From the IMG/VR virus record IMGVR_UViG_2713896737_000030: a stretch of 9,825 nt of DNA; one strand, written 5' to 3'. Each line of letters starts with the position of its first letter. Within the stretch, counting starts at the first letter, position 1. Positions 3,676-9,825 of the stretch are shown here, one piece after another. Position numbers and translations under genes: made by a program. The notes under the pieces are model-generated. The model ran no database searches. It was not told the DNA's origin and worked only from the letters and a program-made list of their open reading frames with translations. This stretch comes from a virus (Duplodnaviria; Heunggongvirae; Uroviricota; Caudoviricetes).

Positions 3676-3975
3676 ATGAAACTTAAATATTCTGGCTTAA
3701 CTGCCAGTGGCAACACTCACCCTAAATTTACGCGCGGTGATATTTACCGCGACCAGTACGGCGGCACGGTAATGATTAAGGGCGTGGAAGAACGGCGCGT
3801 AACCTACCGCCGTGAAGGTTACGAATATGATTGCGTGATGCCTGTTTATCAGTTCCGGCGTGATTTTTCTCTGGTACAGACCGCGCCGCATAACGTGCCC
3901 ACCAGCAACGCCAGGGCACGGGCAAACATCCAGAAGCTGAAAACCATGGTTAACGGATTCAGGGGCAAGAAATGA
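3676..3975 (+). CDS. Hypothetical protein (99 aa)
   Basis: GGAGAA SD upstream. Stop overlaps the ATG of the replication gene (ATGA at 3972-3975). Confidence 0.65.
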   Translation: MKLKYSGLTASGNTHPKFTRGDIYRDQYGGTVMIKGVEERRVTYRREGYEYDCVMPVYQFRRDFSLVQTAPHNVPTSNARARANIQKLKTMVNGFRGKK

Positions 3976-5372
3976 AAAGCGCACCGAACTTAAAAAAACA
4001 GCCTTACGACAAGATGACCGAAGTCATTATTTTTGCGGGTAGTGATGCCTGGGCACATGCGAAACAGTGGCAGGAACAGGACGGGCGACTGGCTGGCGAT
4101 AATGTGCCTCCCGTTGTGCTGGCTGATGATCAACTGGATGAACTGGCAGAACTGAGAATCATCGACGAGGGGCGCTATTGTGTCCGGCTGTACAAGGCAG
4201 GCCACATCAGGCCATCAAATATTAATGCCATTGCGCACAAGCTGGCGGCGGCGGGTGTAACTGATGCGAATTATTACCCCGAAGGGATGCACAGCCATAT
4301 GCGGGAGAACTGGCGCGAATACCTGGAACGGGTGCGCGGGAAAGAGCCGGCGGAAGAAAAAAACCACCAGCGAAAAACCACGCTACCGATGAGCGTTGGA
4401 TCTACCGGATACGACACGCAACTGGATTACGTGGTTAAGGGGATTATTCCGGCGGTATCGCTATGCAGCATATACGGGGCTAGCGGGTCCTATAAATCAT
4501 TCCTTGCCGGATCGTGGGCGTGCCATGTTGCCACTGGTCGCCAGTGGGGAGGCCGCAGGGTTGCACATGGTGCGGTTCTCTATGTGGTTGGTGAAGGCGG
4601 TATAGGTGTTCCGCGTCGTGTAAAAGCCTGGGAGGTTGTGCACGATGAGCAGGTGAAAAATCTGTATCTGGTAAACCGCCCCATCTTTCCGGCTGCCCCG
4701 CTTGATGTTGATGAAATGGTTATCGCTGCCCGTCAGGTGGAGCGGGAAACGGGTAAACCTGTACGCATGATTATTCTGGATACGCTGGCGCGTTGCTTTG
4801 GTGGGAATGATGAAAATGATTCCCGTGATATGGGGGCGTTTATCCGTGGTTGTGACGAACTGAAACGACGCACAGGGGCCACGGTGCTGGTGGTTCACCA
4901 TTCCGGCAAGGATGAGACGAAAGGCGCGCGCGGTTCCAGTGCATTTCGTGCTTCGCTGGATGCTGAATACCGGATACGCAGGGAGGACGCAGGAAGCGAA
5001 GCGCTGGTTATCTCATGCACCAAAATGAAGGACGCGGAGGAACTCAAAGAAGCCGCATATGACTTACGCGTGGTGGAGCTTTTTACCGACGCTGACGGTG
5101 AATTAATCACGTCGCTGGTGGTGGTGGATGATCCGCGCCCTCCTGTTGAACTGGAGCGCATCGAGGAGGCAGGGAACAAGACGGAAAACCATACCGCGCT
5201 ATGGGGGTGCATCCGTTCACGCACACAGAACGGCGACAAGTGCACGATCCCGCTGTTACGTGATGACATGAAAAAGCTGGGGTATGAAATGAAAAACTTC
5301 CGGCGCTGGCTGTACAAGCTGGAAAAAGATGGGGTTATTCGTATCGATGGGGATGATGTAGCGCCGCTATAA
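3972..5372 (+). CDS. Replication initiator ATPase/helicase, RepA-like RecA-fold (AAA_25-type) domain with N-terminal extension (466 aa); PICI pri/rep-like
   Basis: Walker A-like GASGSYKS, Walker B-like RMIILD, and downstream VVHHSGKD...RGSSA motifs typical of RepA/DnaB-like RecA-fold ATPases. Positioned after alpA and followed by an iteron array. Confidence 0.85.
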   Translation: MKSAPNLKKQPYDKMTEVIIFAGSDAWAHAKQWQEQDGRLAGDNVPPVVLADDQLDELAELRIIDEGRYCVRLYKAGHIRPSNINAIAHKLAAAGVTDANYYPEGMHSHMRENWREYLERVRGKEPAEEKNHQRKTTLPMSVGSTGYDTQLDYVVKGIIPAVSLCSIYGASGSYKSFLAGSWACHVATGRQWGGRRVAHGAVLYVVGEGGIGVPRRVKAWEVVHDEQVKNLYLVNRPIFPAAPLDVDEMVIAARQVERETGKPVRMIILDTLARCFGGNDENDSRDMGAFIRGCDELKRRTGATVLVVHHSGKDETKGARGSSAFRASLDAEYRIRREDAGSEALVISCTKMKDAEELKEAAYDLRVVELFTDADGELITSLVVVDDPRPPVELERIEEAGNKTENHTALWGCIRSRTQNGDKCTIPLLRDDMKKLGYEMKNFRRWLYKLEKDGVIRIDGDDVAPL

Positions 5373-5563
5373 AAGTGAGGAGCAAAAGCGAGGGGGATAG
5401 AAAGAGGGCCAAAATTAGCCCGCTCTCCCTCACTTTTCGACCTGTATACATCCTCAAAAGTGAGGGGTAAAAAAATACTTATGAAACACACACATAGAAA
5501 AACCGAAAATCCCAACTGCGACGAAGTGAGACGCTTGAAAAAGTGAGGCGAAAAAGTGAGAGG
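5372..5563. repeat. Iteron array (candidate replication origin): at least 6 copies of AAGTGAG, consensus (A)AAAGTGAGG, including one inverted copy
   Basis: Direct copies at 5373-5379, 5457-5463, 5524-5530, 5541-5547 and 5554-5560; inverted copy at 5428-5437 (CCTCACTTTT). Degenerate copies at 5385-5396 and 5401-5410. Lies immediately downstream of the rep gene. Confidence 0.65.
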
Positions 5564-5572
5564 TTGCGAGAA

Positions 5573-5824
5573 ATGACCCAAAAACGCAGAGACAGAACAG
5601 AGCCAAAATATAAAGCGTTAGACATGACTGAGCACACCTTAAAGGTGGCAATCAGAACGATAGACCGCCACACGCGGGAAGGATACGCGAAGGAACATCC
5701 CGACCTGATAAGCGCATTCATGACCACGGCGGCGGCAAACTTTGCCACGCTGACAGAACGGGAGATTGCCGAAGCGGAACAGGTAACAACCATCAACGTT
5801 AAAACCGGAGAGGTGGAATTATGA
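5573..5824 (+). CDS. Hypothetical protein (83 aa; start uncertain, alternatives at 5543 and 5620)
   Basis: ORF-track 5543..5824, but the 5543 start would lie inside the iterons. ATG at 5573 has a GAGAGG SD-like sequence upstream. Stop overlaps the ssb start (ATGA at 5821-5824). Confidence 0.5.
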   Translation: MTQKRRDRTEPKYKALDMTEHTLKVAIRTIDRHTREGYAKEHPDLISAFMTTAAANFATLTEREIAEAEQVTTINVKTGEVEL

Positions 5825-6231
5825 CGGCACAGATAGCCGCTTACGGGCGGCTGGTGGACGACCCGCAGGTAAAACAGACCAGCAAGGGCACACCGATGAC
5901 GCTGGCGCGTATGGCGGTATCTTTGCCATGCAGCCAGGCACAGGACGGACAGGCGACGTTATGGTTATCGGTCATCGCATTTGGCAAACAGGCCGGCTTC
6001 CTGGCTAAACATCAAAAAGGCGATGTTGCCAGCGTATCCGGCACGATGCAGGTAAGCCAGTGGACCGGACAGAACGGAGAAACGCGGCAGGGCTGGCAGG
6101 TTATCGCAGACAGCGTAATCAGTGCCCGCGCGGCACGTCCAGGCGGGAACAGACGCAAAACCACAGGCACACAGGGTAATCAGCCACCAGCGGGAGGCGA
6201 TGACCCTTACGGTGATGATATTTCGTTCTGA
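5821..6231 (+). CDS. ssb: Single-stranded DNA-binding protein (SSB-like OB-fold) with Gly/Gln-rich linker and acidic C-terminal tail (DDPYGDDISF)
   Basis: N-terminal region resembles E. coli SSB (RLVDDPQVK...; WLSVIAFGKQAGFLAKHQKGDVASVSGTMQVSQWTGQNGETR compared with [40 protein letters not shown]). C-terminus resembles the SSB DDDIPF tail. Confidence 0.75.
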   Translation: MTAQIAAYGRLVDDPQVKQTSKGTPMTLARMAVSLPCSQAQDGQATLWLSVIAFGKQAGFLAKHQKGDVASVSGTMQVSQWTGQNGETRQGWQVIADSVISARAARPGGNRRKTTGTQGNQPPAGGDDPYGDDISF

Positions 6232-6241
6232 GGGGGTGACG

Positions 6242-6514
6242 ATGGTACATGACCGCATAGCGGAGGAACTGGAGGCGAAAGGCTTTTACCGGAGGGCGGC
6301 GGCGCGATGGGGTGAAGTCATGCAGCTGGTGGAGACAGACAAGGAACGGCATCACATCACGATGCGACGGCTGGAATGTTCAAGGAAGGCACAGAGGGCA
6401 CCGGAGCCGCCGGATAATTTCGGAGACCTGAAAAAGGCAGTCGATCGCACTTATGCCGAAATGGGTATAGATGGTGCTGGTGATGAAATATGGCGCAATT
6501 ACCAGGACAGCTAA
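6242..6514 (+). CDS. PerC-family transcriptional regulator-like protein (90 aa)
   Basis: Start ATG 6242 with a GAGGGGG SD. N-terminus MVHDRIAEELEAKGFYRRAAARW matches the PerC/Pch signature (AExLExxGxWRRAAxRW). The longer track ORF from 6122 overlaps ssb and is rejected. Confidence 0.7.
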   Translation: MVHDRIAEELEAKGFYRRAAARWGEVMQLVETDKERHHITMRRLECSRKAQRAPEPPDNFGDLKKAVDRTYAEMGIDGAGDEIWRNYQDS

Positions 6515-6520
6515 TCAAAC

Positions 6521-6544
6521 AGCCGGAGAAATCCGGCTTTTTTT
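6521..6544 (+). terminator. Rho-independent terminator (copy 1 of a repeated hairpin)
   Basis: AGCCGGA-GAAA-TCCGGCT stem-loop (7-bp stem, GAAA tetraloop) followed by 7 Ts, directly after the PerC-like stop. Confidence 0.8.
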
Positions 6545-6640
6545 GCACCAGTTGAAACGGTATGGCGCATTACCGGGTTTTCGTCACGGTCAGGCATAGT
6601 TACTATCTGAAACAAACAGACACAACAGAGGAAAAAAACA

Positions 6641-6865
6641 ATGCCGATGAAATTTGATGAGATATTAAAACAGCGTGATAAATACCATGCTGACAACATG
6701 GAGACGATGAGCATCAATGATTACCGCGCATTCCTGGAGACGGGCGCACTGATTGAAAAGGATCAGCATGGTTTTGTGAGATGTGCTCTATCCGGTGAAA
6801 TGCTGGCGGTAAATCCTGAACAGATAGATGCATTGATAGAATTTCTGAAAGAGATCAGAGACTGA
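6641..6865 (+). CDS. Hypothetical small protein (74 aa), a stand-alone gene bounded by terminators
   Basis: AGAGGA SD 8 nt upstream of the ATG. Flanked by terminators at 6521-6544 and 6885-6907. Confidence 0.6.
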   Translation: MPMKFDEILKQRDKYHADNMETMSINDYRAFLETGALIEKDQHGFVRCALSGEMLAVNPEQIDALIEFLKEIRD

Positions 6866-6884
6866 GCCAGCACACAGCACACAT

Positions 6885-6907
6885 AGCCGGAGCAATCCGG
6901 CTTTTTT
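6885..6907 (+). terminator. Rho-independent terminator (copy 2 of the repeated hairpin)
   Basis: GCCGGA-GCAA-TCCGGC followed by 6 Ts. Confidence 0.75.
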
Positions 6908-6913
6908 GCGCCC

Positions 6914-6955
6914 AAAAAAAGCCCGATAAGGTCAGAGGGTTCTTATCGGGCTTTT
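6914..6955. terminator. Bidirectional terminator-like hairpin (10-bp stem GCCCGATAAG / CTTATCGGGC, A7 upstream, T4 downstream)
   Basis: Perfect 10-bp inverted repeat at 6921-6930 / 6942-6951 with an 11-nt loop. The A-run at 6914-6920 gives a 7-U tract when read on the minus strand. Confidence 0.6.
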
Positions 6956-7032
6956 GCATATGAGGTTTTTGGATGCACTGGCGTTCGTGATCGGGATAAT
7001 CATTTCATAATTTGCAACATAACTCAATATCA

Positions 7033-7062
7033 TTGCATAAAATGCAATTCTGATTATAATCA
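7033..7062 (+). promoter_or_regulatory. Candidate promoter for the head-gene operon: consensus TATAAT at 7055-7060 inside the 12-bp palindrome TGATTATAATCA (7051-7062); upstream inverted repeat TTGCA-N5-TGCAA (7033-7047)
   Basis: Read directly. AT-rich region between the bidirectional terminator and the first gene of the capsid operon. Which -35 hexamer is used is unclear. Confidence 0.35.
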
Positions 7063-7116
7063 GGACTGGATAAACATCCAGTTATGATTTTTTTAGTCGA
7101 AGAGGAATTTCTTACT

Positions 7117-7323
7117 ATGGCTGAAGAGAAAAAAAGCGGTGTTTCGGTGTACATAAGCCCCGAAATCGTGGAGGTGCTCAAGCAGCGCCACAAAAAAAAC
7201 TATGAAGCTGGCGTTGCGGCTGGACTGGATCCGCTGATGACGCCGGAGCCGTCGATAGGTTCACTTGTACGCTCTTATTTACTTGCGGCGCTTGGGATGC
7301 ATAAAAATTATGGGGGTGAATAA
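7117..7323 (+). CDS. Hypothetical small protein (68 aa; alternative start 7084), translationally coupled to the capsid gene
   Basis: AGAGGA about 10 nt upstream of ATG 7117. Stop TAA overlaps the capsid gene ATG (TAATG at 7321-7325). Confidence 0.5.
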   Translation: MAEEKKSGVSVYISPEIVEVLKQRHKKNYEAGVAAGLDPLMTPEPSIGSLVRSYLLAALGMHKNYGGE

Positions 7324-8378
7324 TGGCAGGCAAAGCAACGGCACTTAACACTAACCAGCTTTTCATGTACCTGAATCGCGGGGATATTGCGGATTTTAAA
7401 TTCAGCCCTCTGTTTACCACGCTGTTTTTCCCGAACGTGGCGACATTCAGCACGCAAAACATCATGCTGGATACCCTGGACATTGAAGAAGTCACCATGT
7501 CGGCGTTTTGTTCGCCTATGGTGGGTAGCCAGGTTCAGCGCGATAAAGGGTACGAAACCAGCACAATCAAACCTGGCTACATGAAGCCAAAGCACGAAAT
7601 CGATCCAACGAAAACCATCATGCGCATGGCTGGAGAAGATCCGGCACAGCTTAACGACCCTACCTATCGCCGTATGCGCCTGATTACTGGCAACATGCGC
7701 CGCCAGATAAACGCCATTAAGGCACGCGTGGAATGGCTGGCGGTGAATGCGGTAACGACCGGAAAAAACATCATTGAGGGCGAAGGCATAGAACGCTATG
7801 AAATCGACTGGAAAATACCGGAAAACTGCATCATAGAGCAGGCCAAGGGTAAAAAATGGTCCGAGCAGGATAAAGACATGCACGACCCAATCTATGACAT
7901 CGAGCTTTATGCTGATCAGGCTGGTTGCCCCGCAAACGTCATGATTATGGGCGCTGAGGTATGGCGCACATTACGCAGCTTTAAAAAATTCCGTGAGCTG
8001 TACGATCTTTCCCGTGGTTCAGAATCCGCCGCCGAACTGGCCTGTAAAAACCTGGGCGAAGTGGTGAGCTTTAAAGGCTATCTTGGTGATCTGGCCCTTA
8101 TCGTCTATTCCGGCAAATACACTGACAGCGATGGTACCGAAAAATATTTCCTTGAGCCTGATTTGCTGGTCCTAGGTAACACCAACAATAAAGGGCTGGT
8201 GGCCTATGGTGCGATAATGGATCAGGAAGCGGTAAGAACGGGCGCAACACAAAACATGTTTTACCCGAAAAACTGGATTGAGGACGGCGATCCGGCGATT
8301 GAGTACGTGCAGACACACAGTGCACCGCAGCCGGTACCGGCAGATATTCGCAAATTTGTTACCGTCAAAATTGGTTAA
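7323..8378 (+). CDS. Major capsid protein, phage lambda gpE-like family (351 aa)
   Basis: Several conserved blocks match lambda gpE as recalled: FKFSPLFTTLFF vs FKFDPLFLRLFF; PGYMKPKHEIDP vs PGYVKPKHEVNP; DPTYRRMRLI vs DPAYRRRRII; YPKNWIEDGDPAIEYVQTHSAP vs YPKNWVTTGDPAREFTMIQSAP. Length is similar (351 vs 341 aa). Strong SD (GGGGGTG). Confidence 0.85.
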   Translation: MAGKATALNTNQLFMYLNRGDIADFKFSPLFTTLFFPNVATFSTQNIMLDTLDIEEVTMSAFCSPMVGSQVQRDKGYETSTIKPGYMKPKHEIDPTKTIMRMAGEDPAQLNDPTYRRMRLITGNMRRQINAIKARVEWLAVNAVTTGKNIIEGEGIERYEIDWKIPENCIIEQAKGKKWSEQDKDMHDPIYDIELYADQAGCPANVMIMGAEVWRTLRSFKKFRELYDLSRGSESAAELACKNLGEVVSFKGYLGDLALIVYSGKYTDSDGTEKYFLEPDLLVLGNTNNKGLVAYGAIMDQEAVRTGATQNMFYPKNWIEDGDPAIEYVQTHSAPQPVPADIRKFVTVKIG

Positions 8379-8390
8379 CGGGGGGATTCT

Positions 8391-8726
8391 ATGGACACTC
8401 CATACATTGAGTTATTTGCAGGCAGTCAGCAGGTATCCACGACGTTGGTACATTTTGCCGCTGATGCTGGCGTTATTCAGGAATTTACCCCGCTGATGCT
8501 GGCAGACAATGGCGAGTTTAAGCCGTGGGATGGTCAGGAATCTGGCAAGGCTGTTTATCTGACCTCGTACCCTGTGGACACGTCAAAGCAGAAATCAGCA
8601 CAGTGTTACAAGACGGGGATATTCAATATTGCCGCCGTTAACTGGCCTGAGAGCGTCGACACCGATGCGAAAAAATGCGCCGCCTTTGCGGGTTCCGGCG
8701 TATCCGTTCAGCCGCTGGCCCGATAA
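8391..8726 (+). CDS. Head decoration protein, phage lambda gpD-like (111 aa)
   Basis: TPLMLADNGEFKPWDG vs lambda D TPLMLDTSSRKLVAWDG; CYKTGIFNIAAVNWPESVDTDAKKCAAFAGSGVSVQ vs [36 protein letters not shown]. Length 111 vs 110 aa. Confidence 0.8.
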   Translation: MDTPYIELFAGSQQVSTTLVHFAADAGVIQEFTPLMLADNGEFKPWDGQESGKAVYLTSYPVDTSKQKSAQCYKTGIFNIAAVNWPESVDTDAKKCAAFAGSGVSVQPLAR

Positions 8727-8738
8727 GCAGGGGGAACG

Positions 8739-9152
8739 ATGGCAACGAATGAAAGCATCATGACGCTACCGCTGGCGAGTAAATTTAAAGTCGAAGCGCG
8801 GGCAATGGCTGACAGAGGTTTATCAACCTATGAGGCCGTATATCAACTAAACAAACTGGAAGAGCAGGACAAGCCGTGCGCTGATGCGATTATGGCGCTT
8901 CATGAGCATAAAGACTATCAGCCGCTGTTGCGTGCAATGGCAAACGTGCCTTGTATCGATGTTGGTACGGCTAAAAGCATCCTTAGCATGACCATAGAGC
9001 AGGAACGTCCGAAGGTTGCGCCGGAACTTACCGCAGCCTTTGAAAACTTTATGGACATGCACAGCCCGCAAGCCGTATCAGCTGGCATGGCATACGATGG
9101 CAGAAACCAGGGCGATGACGGCGACATCGATCGCATACTGAAAACCATCTGA
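8739..9152 (+). CDS. Hypothetical protein (137 aa) between the decoration gene and the cos site
   Basis: ORF with a CAGGGGGA SD and a terminator just downstream. No recognisable motif; its position suggests a head or packaging accessory role. Confidence 0.7.
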   Translation: MATNESIMTLPLASKFKVEARAMADRGLSTYEAVYQLNKLEEQDKPCADAIMALHEHKDYQPLLRAMANVPCIDVGTAKSILSMTIEQERPKVAPELTAAFENFMDMHSPQAVSAGMAYDGRNQGDDGDIDRILKTI

Positions 9153-9157
9153 GACAA

Positions 9158-9180
9158 GGCCGGAGAAATCCGGCTTTTTT
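9158..9180 (+). terminator. Rho-independent terminator (copy 3 of the repeated hairpin)
   Basis: GCCGGA-GAAA-TCCGGC followed by 6 Ts, 6 nt after the stop of the 137-aa gene. Confidence 0.75.
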
Positions 9181-9204
9181 ACGGGTCCTTCCTGGAATTA
9201 TGGC

Positions 9205-9245
9205 CCGTTACGGGGCGGCGACCTCGCGGATTTTCGCTATTTATG
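9205..9245. other. Lambda-type cos site: the 12-nt sequence at 9213-9224 (GGGCGGCGACCT) matches the lambda cohesive end (cosN), with lambda-like flanks
   Basis: Window sequence GTTACGGGGCGGCGACCTCGCGGATTTTCGCTATTTATGAGCCTTTTCAGG compared with the lambda left end as recalled, GGGCGGCGACCTCGCGGGTTTTCGCTATTTATGAAAATTTTCCGG. The match is near-identical through CGCTATTTATGA and diverges thereafter, where lambda cosB lies. Sits about 135 bp upstream of a Nu1-like gene, as in lambda. Confidence 0.75.
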
Positions 9246-9318
9246 AGCCTTTTCAGGGTGGTGGTGGTGGTTTTGTTGTTTGATCTATCTTTATGAATGA
9301 AAAGGGAAAGATGCAAGC

Positions 9319-9357: not shown

Positions 9358-9702
9358 ATGAAATCTCATCTGATGAACAAAAAAAACATGGCGAAAAGCT
9401 GCCGTGTAAGTGCGACAGCGTTCGACAAGTGGGGAGTAACTCCCGTTGAGCGTAAAGGCCGTGAGGCGTTTTATGATGTTGCCAGCGTGATAGAAAATAG
9501 GGTTAACAATGCAATTAGCCAGCTTATAAACGACAAAGGCGAGATTGACGATGATGAACTTTTACGAGTCAGGATCAGATTACTGACAGCACAGGCAGAG
9601 GCGCAGGAACTTAAAAACGATCGCGGTGACGTGATTGATACTGAGTTTTGCCTGTACGCGCTTTCAAAGCTGGCGAGTCAGATTTCATCAATCATGGACT
9701 GA
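9358..9702 (+). CDS. Terminase small subunit, lambda Nu1-like (PICI Rpp-like); 114 aa, apparently truncated at the 3' end by an IS insertion
   Basis: LTAQAEAQELKNDRGDVIDTEFCLYALSKLASQISSIMD matches lambda Nu1 [42 protein letters not shown]. N-terminal region resembles the Nu1 winged-HTH region. Nu1 is 181 aa; here the reading frame ends with a TGA that is the first three bases of the IS (9700-9702). The exact start is uncertain (ATGs at 9358, 9373, 9388; none has a good SD). Confidence 0.75.
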   Translation: MKSHLMNKKNMAKSCRVSATAFDKWGVTPVERKGREAFYDVASVIENRVNNAISQLINDKGEIDDDELLRVRIRLLTAQAEAQELKNDRGDVIDTEFCLYALSKLASQISSIMD

Positions 9703-9825
9703 ACCGCCCCGGAAATCCTGGAGACTAAACTCCCTGAGAAAGAGGTAAACAGGATGACTAAAAATACTCGTTTTTCCCCCGAAGTCCGTCAGCGGGCGAT
9801 TCGTATGGTTCTGGAAAGTCAGGAT
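9700..9825 (+). mobile_element. IS3-family insertion sequence (IS629/IS1203-like left end), partial; continues beyond the window
   Basis: Left terminus TGAACCGCCCCGGAAATCCTGGAGACTAAACTCCCTGAGAAAGAGGTAAACAGG followed by the OrfA start. The terminal sequence and OrfA N-terminus match IS3-group elements as recalled. Confidence 0.75.
9754..9825 (+). CDS. IS3-family transposase OrfA (HTH subunit), N-terminal 24 codons; partial, runs off the window
   Basis: MTKNTRFSPEVRQRAIRMVLESQD matches the conserved N-terminus of IS629-like OrfA (MTKNTRFSPEVRQRAVRMVLESQ...). SD GAGAAAGAGG upstream. Confidence 0.8.
   Translation, partial: MTKNTRFSPEVRQRAIRMVLESQD

Follow-up and report, generated by a model that had tools for sequence, protein, structure and literature searches.

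Gram-negative phage-inducible chromosomal islands (PICIs) were defined in 2018 in a paper which describes gene c1499 of the Escherichia coli CFT073 island, EcCICFT073, as a putative capsid gene and c1500 as the gene of a head decoration protein, and whose supplement lists c1498 with 68 aa and c1501 with 137 aa (PMC6092414). EcCICFT073 is mobilised by helper phages, helper-dependent transfer having been shown for the CFT073 island (PMC6092414), and a major capsid gene was found in 21 of 29 reference Gram-negative PICIs (PMC10111431). Here we analyzed a stretch of 9,825 nt (the window) from the IMG/VR virus record IMGVR_UViG_2713896737_000030, with a focus on its capsid genes. It matches the E. 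coli O157:H7 strain 7.1_Anguil chromosome with 100% identity and starts at the integrase start codon of an island between roxA (ycfD) and phoQ. As this position agrees with the published one (PMC3378721), the element is a known Gram-negative PICI, O-island 51 (OI-51) of O157:H7, named CP-933C in EDL933 and Sp7 in Sakai (PMC3378721), and the capsid genes lie in its late (packaging) zone. In 2011 OI-51 was called a ‘highly degraded prophage’ with a P4-like integrase, AlpA, replication, SSB, PchE and ‘phage structural genes’ (PMC3378721). The island and its coat (E) and decoration (D) genes are already known, the capsid and decoration genes having been reported in 2018; the novelty implied by a first reading of the bare sequence (the original prediction) does not hold, as the same module is c1498-c1501 of EcCICFT073, whose capsid and decoration genes were also deleted in that year (PMC6092414). 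What our analysis adds is the assignment of a scaffold gene, a satellite-specific clade of E and D proteins, selection data and a caveat on the published knock-outs.

The coat gene (7323..8378, + strand, 351 aa) is the orthologue of c1499 and encodes a major capsid protein of the lambda gpE family. In a profile hidden Markov model search it matched the Pfam family Phage_cap_E (PF03864) with E=5.5e-50 (170.7 bits at a cut-off of 22.9) over profile positions 16-328 of 329. Identity to lambda gpE is 43% over 327 aa. The protein retains the invariant residues of the E family and shares 96.6% protein identity with c1499 of CFT073; the latter has the same sequence (100% identity) as the PDB entry 3BQW (‘putative capsid protein of prophage’). 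The decoration gene (8391..8726, + strand, 111 aa), orthologous to c1500, belongs to the lambda gpD/phage 21 SHP family. It matched the Pfam family HDPD (PF02924) with E=5.1e-18 (65.7 bits, cut-off 29.1), is 36% identical to lambda gpD and has as its closest solved structures the head-decoration-protein entries 1TD0 and 1TD3, followed by the lambda gpD entries. The island encodes full-length coat and decoration proteins of the gpE and gpD families, as the original prediction had proposed. It had also been right about their order, which is E then D in the island and D (5747-6079) then E (6135-7160) in lambda.

The next gene (8739..9152, + strand, 137 aa, the c1501 orthologue) had been listed as unknown, and the module as lacking a scaffold; both statements have to be revised. 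The 137-aa protein is a full-length member of phrog_1999 (E=1.7e-68), a family that the C-terminal part of lambda gpC/Nu3 (gpC residues 355-438) matches as well (E=1.5e-25), and its open reading frame (ORF) also matches the C-terminal end of the head-protease profile phrog_53. When all phage records were searched with the protein by tblastn, matches came only from PhiR12-type lambdoids, at the 3' end of their gpC/Nu3 gene. Residues 49-131 are 39% identical to residues 416-493 of the 501-aa PhiR12 gpC/Nu3, with E=3e-11 in the pairwise comparison and E=4e-5 in the phage database, and the C-terminal motif FENFMDMHSPQAV is shared between the two proteins. Like the C-terminal Nu3 domain of PhiR12 with its FExFMxxHSPxxV motif, the 137-aa protein, the 141-aa equivalent of a distant island and a metagenomic Nu3-like protein contain the pattern F[ED]x[FY]MxxHSPxxV. 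Some database records label the family ‘head-tail preconnector/connector protein’, and the PhiR12 records label Nu3 in the same way. Direct BLASTP against lambda gpC/Nu3 was not significant (E=0.6), so the assignment needed profiles and the closer PhiR12 protein. Comparison with PDB sequences gave chance matches only, and no Pfam or NCBIfam model matched. A word-indexed homologue search returned E. coli proteins only, the full-length ones being at least 83% identical, and an exhaustive phmmer search of 1.84 billion representatives returned eight proteins, of which only two (P0099 and P0100) were informative. The AlphaFold model of the protein is all-helical with a mean confidence score (pLDDT) of 49 and was left out of the fold comparison. 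The gene is free-standing and located downstream of D, unlike lambda, where Nu3 is nested in the 3' part of the protease gene. On these profile and motif matches we assign the product as a stand-alone Nu3-type scaffolding-domain protein, and by this assignment the island encodes a scaffold. With a Nu3-type scaffold as third gene, the module would be a coherent shell kit and not two stray genes. Compared with lambda and the lambdoids PhiR12 and Gifsy-1, the three protein families and the cohesive end are the same; relative to lambda and PhiR12, however, E reaches only 43-47% identity, D 36-37% and Nu3 ~39% over 83 aa, the phage order Nu3-D-E is E-D-Nu3 in the island, and the island has no portal, protease, terminase A, W, FI or FII.

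For these absent genes we used the lambda and PhiR12 terminase A, portal B, protease part of C, W, FI and FII as tblastn queries (E<=0.01). None of them gave a match in the window, as the original prediction had stated for portal, protease and large terminase, or in the complete islands from one attachment site (att) to the other. Portal, protease, large terminase and connector genes are likewise not annotated in the island, either in the source genome or in strain TW14359. The missing head genes had been suspected beyond the insertion sequence (IS) at the right edge of the window, but 3' of the IS the source genome contains only the rest of the small-terminase gene terS, one 93-aa ORF and phoQ, and in IS-free O157 strains such as TW14359 terS is intact with 180 aa and the island ends in the same way. 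Sid, Psu and delta/epsilon were not found among the Pfam and PHROG matches of the late zone or in RefSeq, although no dedicated profile search was made for Sid and Psu. Capsid-forming PICIs (cf-PICIs) carry portal and protease too and steal only tails. They share with the O157:H7 island the int-alpA-replication backbone, an own major capsid protein and an own small terminase, and are set apart by large terminase, head-tail adaptor and connector genes (PMC10085698). As large terminase, adaptor/connector, portal and protease genes are all absent from the O157:H7 island, we rejected its classification as a cf-PICI on gene content.

Next, we asked how widely the module occurs. Of 5,426 complete E. 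coli genomes, 598 (~11%), among them CFT073, Nissle 1917 and ATCC 25922, carry the full module at an identity of at least 91.7%, and at least 1,078 of 1,080 module matches are chromosomal. The related islands are of two types. In type A the late zone consists of the 68-aa gene, E, D, the Nu3-like gene, cos, TerS or Rpp and a 93-aa gene; these islands are located at roxA/phoQ and cspD/clpS, and one flanked by yejO (L009) has no annotated TerS/Rpp gene. Type B islands have E, D, a 127-aa helix-turn-helix (HTH) protein, a 69-aa protein, TerS and the 93-aa gene. They and helper-embedded islands (e.g. 11capE) resemble type A in an E-D pair of the same satellite clade (53-56% identical), followed by packaging-specificity genes and then the 93-aa gene, but type B has the 127-aa and 69-aa proteins in place of the 68-aa gene and the Nu3-like scaffold, and some of these islands are embedded in the E gene of the helper prophage itself. 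Type B was found in Kluyvera, Cedecea, Superficieibacter and Kosakonia as well. A search of genome contigs with a single E protein found nothing; when aligned island E proteins served as the query instead, four loci were found. Among themselves, the E proteins of islands from five genera share 53-63% identity and are always encoded in the order E then D, whereas their best identity to any of 50,697 phage records is at most 47% for type A and at most 41.8% for type B. Even in embedded islands E reaches only 41-44% identity to the host prophage's E. No portal, terminase A or protease gene was found inside islands of this clade. The higher identity among islands than to any phage record indicates that island E and D form an old satellite-specific lineage and were not recently captured from helpers.

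For intactness and median pairwise ratios of nonsynonymous to synonymous substitution rates (dN/dS) we used 80 IMG/VR loci of type A. E is intact in all 80 loci (median dN/dS 0.13), D in 77 of 78 evaluable loci (0.095) and the Nu3-like scaffold gene in 69 of 73 evaluable loci, with five loci lacking it (0.27). The same module is accompanied by TerS in 37 loci and by RppA in 19. These values point to purifying selection on genes that appear to be functional and not decaying. Three IMG/VR contigs (L049, L050 and L081) contain islands with the type A module (E at least 92% identical) and helper head genes on both sides, so that the same module serves both chromosomal and helper-embedded islands; the fragments flanking L049 suggest an insertion in the portal gene B. 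Two single loci were also noted. E. coli KGu016 (L005, 11155-11570) exemplifies decay or rearrangement 3' of D: its scaffold-like gene carries a frameshift and its rppA-like gene is inverted relative to CFT073, while E and D are intact. In E. coli Z0117EC0036 (L007, 11718-12860) an island located within gene E of a lambdoid prophage has, just after its own E, D and HTH genes, a TIR-domain gene that runs on the opposite strand and may be defence cargo.

The remaining part of the window contains a satellite backbone of the kind that the original prediction had recognised. The integrase gene int (1-1230, Pfam Phage_integrase and Arm-DNA-bind_3) is followed by alpA (1595-1783, Phage_AlpA, E=5.4e-17), the gene of a 99-aa DUF4222 protein (3676-3975), a RepA-type helicase gene (3972-5372, AAA_25, E=2.4e-43), iterons of the AAGTGAGG type (5371-5563) directly 3' of the helicase gene, an SSB gene (5821-6231, identified by Pfam) and the gene of the PerC-family regulator PchE (6242-6514). 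All these genes are on the + strand, which according to RefSeq holds every annotated gene of the island. The position of the iterons fits the expected place of a PICI replication origin and marks a candidate origin. RgdR, a regulator of type III secretion published for OI-51, likewise has 99 aa, and the DUF4222 protein probably is this regulator. RgdR (if the assignment is correct) and PchE are virulence regulators carried as cargo of a satellite. A 21-bp direct repeat, CGGTGTAGTTAATGGTGTAGT, is present at both island ends (att), and the distance from att to att is 10,977 bp in TW14359, 12,284 bp in the window strain with its IS included and 11,219 bp in CFT073. The sequence traits of a Gram-negative PICI of the EcCICFT073 type are present: int is leftmost, followed by alpA and genes running in one direction to the right; a replication protein of its own is followed by iterons; the island of ~10-15 kb is bounded by att and flanked by roxA and phoQ; and a lambda-type cosQ/cosN is combined with a Nu1-like TerS, which in the window strain is disrupted by the IS. 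Neither island flank contains tail or lysis genes in the source genome or in the IS-free strain.

EcCICFT073 (c1498-c1503) itself shares the roxA/phoQ site, the att core and the int, alpA, SSB and PerC-family genes in the same order, as well as the operon of the 68-aa, E, D and 137-aa genes (94.7% DNA identity), the lambda-type cosQ/cosN and the 93-aa last gene. It differs in having a P4-type primase where the O157:H7 island has a RepA-type helicase, and RppA (144 aa) where the O157:H7 island has a full-length Nu1-like TerS (180 aa), with cosB differing accordingly. P4, the satellite of P2, is similar in its P4-type integrase, its AlpA-like regulator, the use of its helper's cos and a size of ~11 kb, and its Psu is a capsid decoration protein. 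However, P4 places the external scaffold Sid on the helper coat and has no coat gene, whereas the O157:H7 island has its own.

Downstream of the capsid genes we observed a lambda-type cos (9178..9260, + strand) composed of a cosQ-like stretch, cosN and an island-specific cosB. The 12-base lambda cohesive end GGGCGGCGACCT is located at 9213-9224; cosQ and the flanking bases are lambda-like, whereas cosB is different. Both this site and the IS at the right edge had been noticed before. The 5' part of the Nu1-like small-terminase gene (9358..9699, + strand, codons 1-114 of 180), which was identified by Pfam, PHROG and RefSeq, is followed by the left end of an IS3-family insertion sequence (9700..9825, + strand, annotated as an IS3-family transposase in RefSeq), which we take to be IS629-like. 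The IS cuts terS at codon 114. Other O157 genomes match the window only up to 9699, and across the junction only strain 7.1_Anguil matches among the complete E. coli genomes listed. In lambda the C-terminal part of Nu1 binds the large terminase. The truncated TerS would keep the N-terminal DNA-binding part and lose the C-terminal part, so the copy of the island in this strain is probably impaired in directing its own packaging.

The capsid genes are preceded by the gene of a 68-aa protein (7117..7323, + strand), a homologue of c1498 and a member of phrog_3255, whose stop codon overlaps the start of E (TAATG). This first gene had been taken to begin at 7084; most likely, however, it starts at 7117, as the ATG at 7117 and its AGAGGA ribosome-binding site are conserved in related islands while the ATG at 7084 is not, and RefSeq uses the same start. 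A single-sequence AlphaFold model of the protein shows two helices (pLDDT 79). Foldseek against the PDB found nothing significant (best E=0.47) and Pfam gave no match; the guess that the protein is a ribbon-helix-helix regulator was left unproven, with neither Foldseek nor Pfam supporting it. Compared with the CFT073 copy the 68-aa gene is only 78% identical at DNA level and 66% at protein level, which is one further difference between the two islands, while the abutting E gene reaches 95.7% and 96.6%, respectively. A sharp mosaic (recombination) joint thus lies at the start of E. Among 80 related loci the 68-aa allele is of the window type in 33 and of the CFT073 type in 47.

Upstream of the 68-aa gene, conservation and inverted repeats define a putative control region of the capsid operon (6990..7116, + strand), which is better conserved than coding DNA even in comparison with an island whose genes are only ~60% identical. 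It contains a candidate promoter, which was read by eye and not listed by a consensus scan (TTGCAT at 7033-7038, a 16-nt spacer and TATAAT at 7055-7060), and the palindromes TTGCATAAAATGCAA and TGATTATAATCA together with an inverted repeat at 7058-7089 overlap this promoter. A blastn search with 6975-7120 against the 50,697 phage records gave no meaningful match, and the idea of a late promoter controlled by the helper's Q, or of a qut copy, is unsupported by this empty search. A terminator hairpin, GCCGGAGCAATCCGGCTTTTT, closes the upstream unit (6886..6906, + strand) and has near-identical copies at 6522-6542 and at 9159-9179 (+ strand), the latter closing the capsid operon, so that the three hairpins sit after the PerC gene, a 74-aa gene and the capsid operon. 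The terminator GCCGGAG(A/C)AATCCGGCTTTTT was matched three times, compared to 0 expected from 200 shuffles. This repetition of identical terminators suggests regulated read-through between the units, possibly by antitermination on helper induction. Overall, the capsid zone reads as one tightly packed operon of four genes with its own conserved control region and predicted terminators on both sides. In papers that mention CP-933C we found nothing usable on the expression of these capsid genes.

What the module does for the island can be proposed only tentatively. We consider it possible, with a probability of roughly 40%, that the module provides the bulk components of the shell in capsids that are assembled with the portal, protease and terminase of the helper. 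The island would code for the three high-copy shell components, namely coat, internal scaffold and cement, while the low-copy or catalytic parts (portal, protease, large terminase, head-completion proteins and tails) would come from a lambdoid helper. On helper induction, island coat and scaffold would build procapsid shells on helper portals, either alone or mixed with helper gpE, and the helper protease would mature these shells. They would then be filled with island concatemers by the helper large terminase, directed to the island cos by TerS (Rpp in EcCICFT073), and after expansion the island decoration protein would cement them. Such shells would probably be helper-sized and hold about four 11-kb units per head (43.9 kb, which fits the lambda head), and the module would give an added capsid supply or helper range without being essential. 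As established for lambda, gpD-family proteins have one known job: they bind to expanded, filled gpE lattices at the three-fold sites. This function and the fact that D is the most constrained of the three genes argue that lattices with island E are really made and filled.

Several observations weigh against this proposal. At only 42-47% identity to helper-type E, island E may be unable to use the portal and protease of a helper. The scaffold gene is disrupted in four and absent from five of the 80 loci and carries a frameshift in KGu016, and type B islands carry E and D without a scaffold gene. No island-encoded capsid protein has been reported in particles. Deletion of c1499 or c1500 left both transfer by the resident helper and interference with lambda unchanged, and with lambda EcCICFT073 DNA was packaged at phage size only (PMC6092414). 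Of the genes after the replication origin, each expressed on its own from pBAD18, c1503 (rppA) was the only one to block lambda (PMC6739421). The published null results come with a caveat, however, since c1499 and c1500 were deleted from an island marked c1501::tetA, in which the scaffold gene as assigned here was already interrupted, and the other marked island was c1499::cat (Table 1 and strain list of PMC6092414). A comparison of the intact module with a null is not evident in the text of that paper, and TerS-type islands showed no transfer in its tests (PMC6092414).

A more far-reaching version, which we regard as doubtful, is that type A PICIs, the O157:H7 island among them, are half-way capsid formers that make their own shell, possibly of their own size, and steal only portal, protease, large terminase, connectors and tails. 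The published negative results do not decide against this version, as all marked EcCICFT073 derivatives described were damaged in the module. Redirection of capsid size as the purpose of the module is an unlikely explanation. Here the own coat and scaffold would set a smaller geometry, or the coat would enter helper shells like Ccm of SaPIbov5, so that small heads would accommodate one 11-kb unit or two but not the helper genome. The island does encode both proteins that normally set capsid size, both strongly diverged from the helper versions, and the island units are uniformly ~11 kb. Ccm, a capsid homologue, redirects capsid size or shape (cited in PMC6092414; PMC8569155), and the Pasteurella island PmCI172 combines a capsid homologue with small heads (PMC6092414). 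SaPIbov5 is similar to the O157:H7 island in being a cos-packaged satellite with a diverged homologue of the helper coat and no portal or terminase of its own. However, Ccm demonstrably changes capsid shape and size (PMC8569155), which for the O157:H7 island is at most a prediction; the O157:H7 island also adds a decoration protein and a separate scaffold, and the coat proteins share the fold class only. The phage-sized packaging of EcCICFT073 with lambda is at odds with a change of size, yet that result came only from c1501::tetA or c1499::cat islands, and the published size data omit TerS-type islands. Further points against it are that the lengths are like those of the lambda counterparts (351 and 341 aa for E, 137 and 131 aa for the scaffold), that by simple arithmetic four 11-kb units fit the lambda head well, and that type B islands do without a scaffold of their own.

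It is quite improbable that E and D are mainly spare copies. In this explanation, relatives of the island integrate in late genes of the helper, often in E, where the resident E and D compensate for the loss, and the genes have little function in chromosomal islands. Such a backup has been proposed before (PMC10111431). It agrees with the helper-embedded islands inside the helper gene E (L007, L014 and L016) and with the three type A loci that have helper head genes on both sides, one of them apparently in the portal gene B. On the other hand, an island E with only 41-44% identity to the E of the host prophage cannot count as a copy of that gene, the helper gene is in any case restored by excision, and strong purifying selection acts on a module that is kept at full length in 598 genomes and is almost always chromosomal.

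We consider it just as hard to believe that the proteins stay out of the island's own particles and act as decoys, disturbing the assembly of competing E-type phages or titrating portal, protease or chaperones. Satellites commonly interfere with capsid assembly (PMC6893505), and the c1499 and c1500 deletions had no transfer defect. Nevertheless, none of the singly expressed genes other than c1503 inhibited lambda, deletion of c1499 or c1500 did not relieve interference, and a decoration protein as conserved as D has no obvious assembly-poisoning role. Finally, although the original annotation was that of a cryptic or defective prophage (PMC3378721) and lambda-type cos, Nu1, D, E and Nu3 homologues are all present, the reading of E, D and Nu3 as leftovers of a complete lambdoid head module, which the original prediction had named among the findings that would refute it, is effectively refuted by the precise 21-bp att repeats and constant length of ~11 kb, the same architecture at three integration sites and in five genera, the same-strand order E-D-Nu3 that reverses the phage order, the purifying selection on the genes, roxA/phoQ flanks without tail or lysis genes and the experimental mobilisation of the EcCICFT073 orthologue by helpers (PMC6092414).

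As a discovery the locus is ordinary, since the island, its capsid and decoration genes and the crystal structure of the coat protein were already in the literature and databases. Nevertheless, about one in nine complete E. coli genomes keeps a satellite-specific set of coat, decoration and scaffold genes under strong purifying selection, and this set has no published phenotype. If the shell set does build particles, these islands would be a missing step between satellites that take entire capsids from a helper and satellites that take nothing but its tails; and if type A PICIs are half-way capsid formers, they would close the gap that separates classical PICIs from cf-PICIs. As the family carries RgdR and PchE, which act on type III secretion in enterohaemorrhagic E. 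coli, the mobility of these islands also bears on the spread of virulence regulators.

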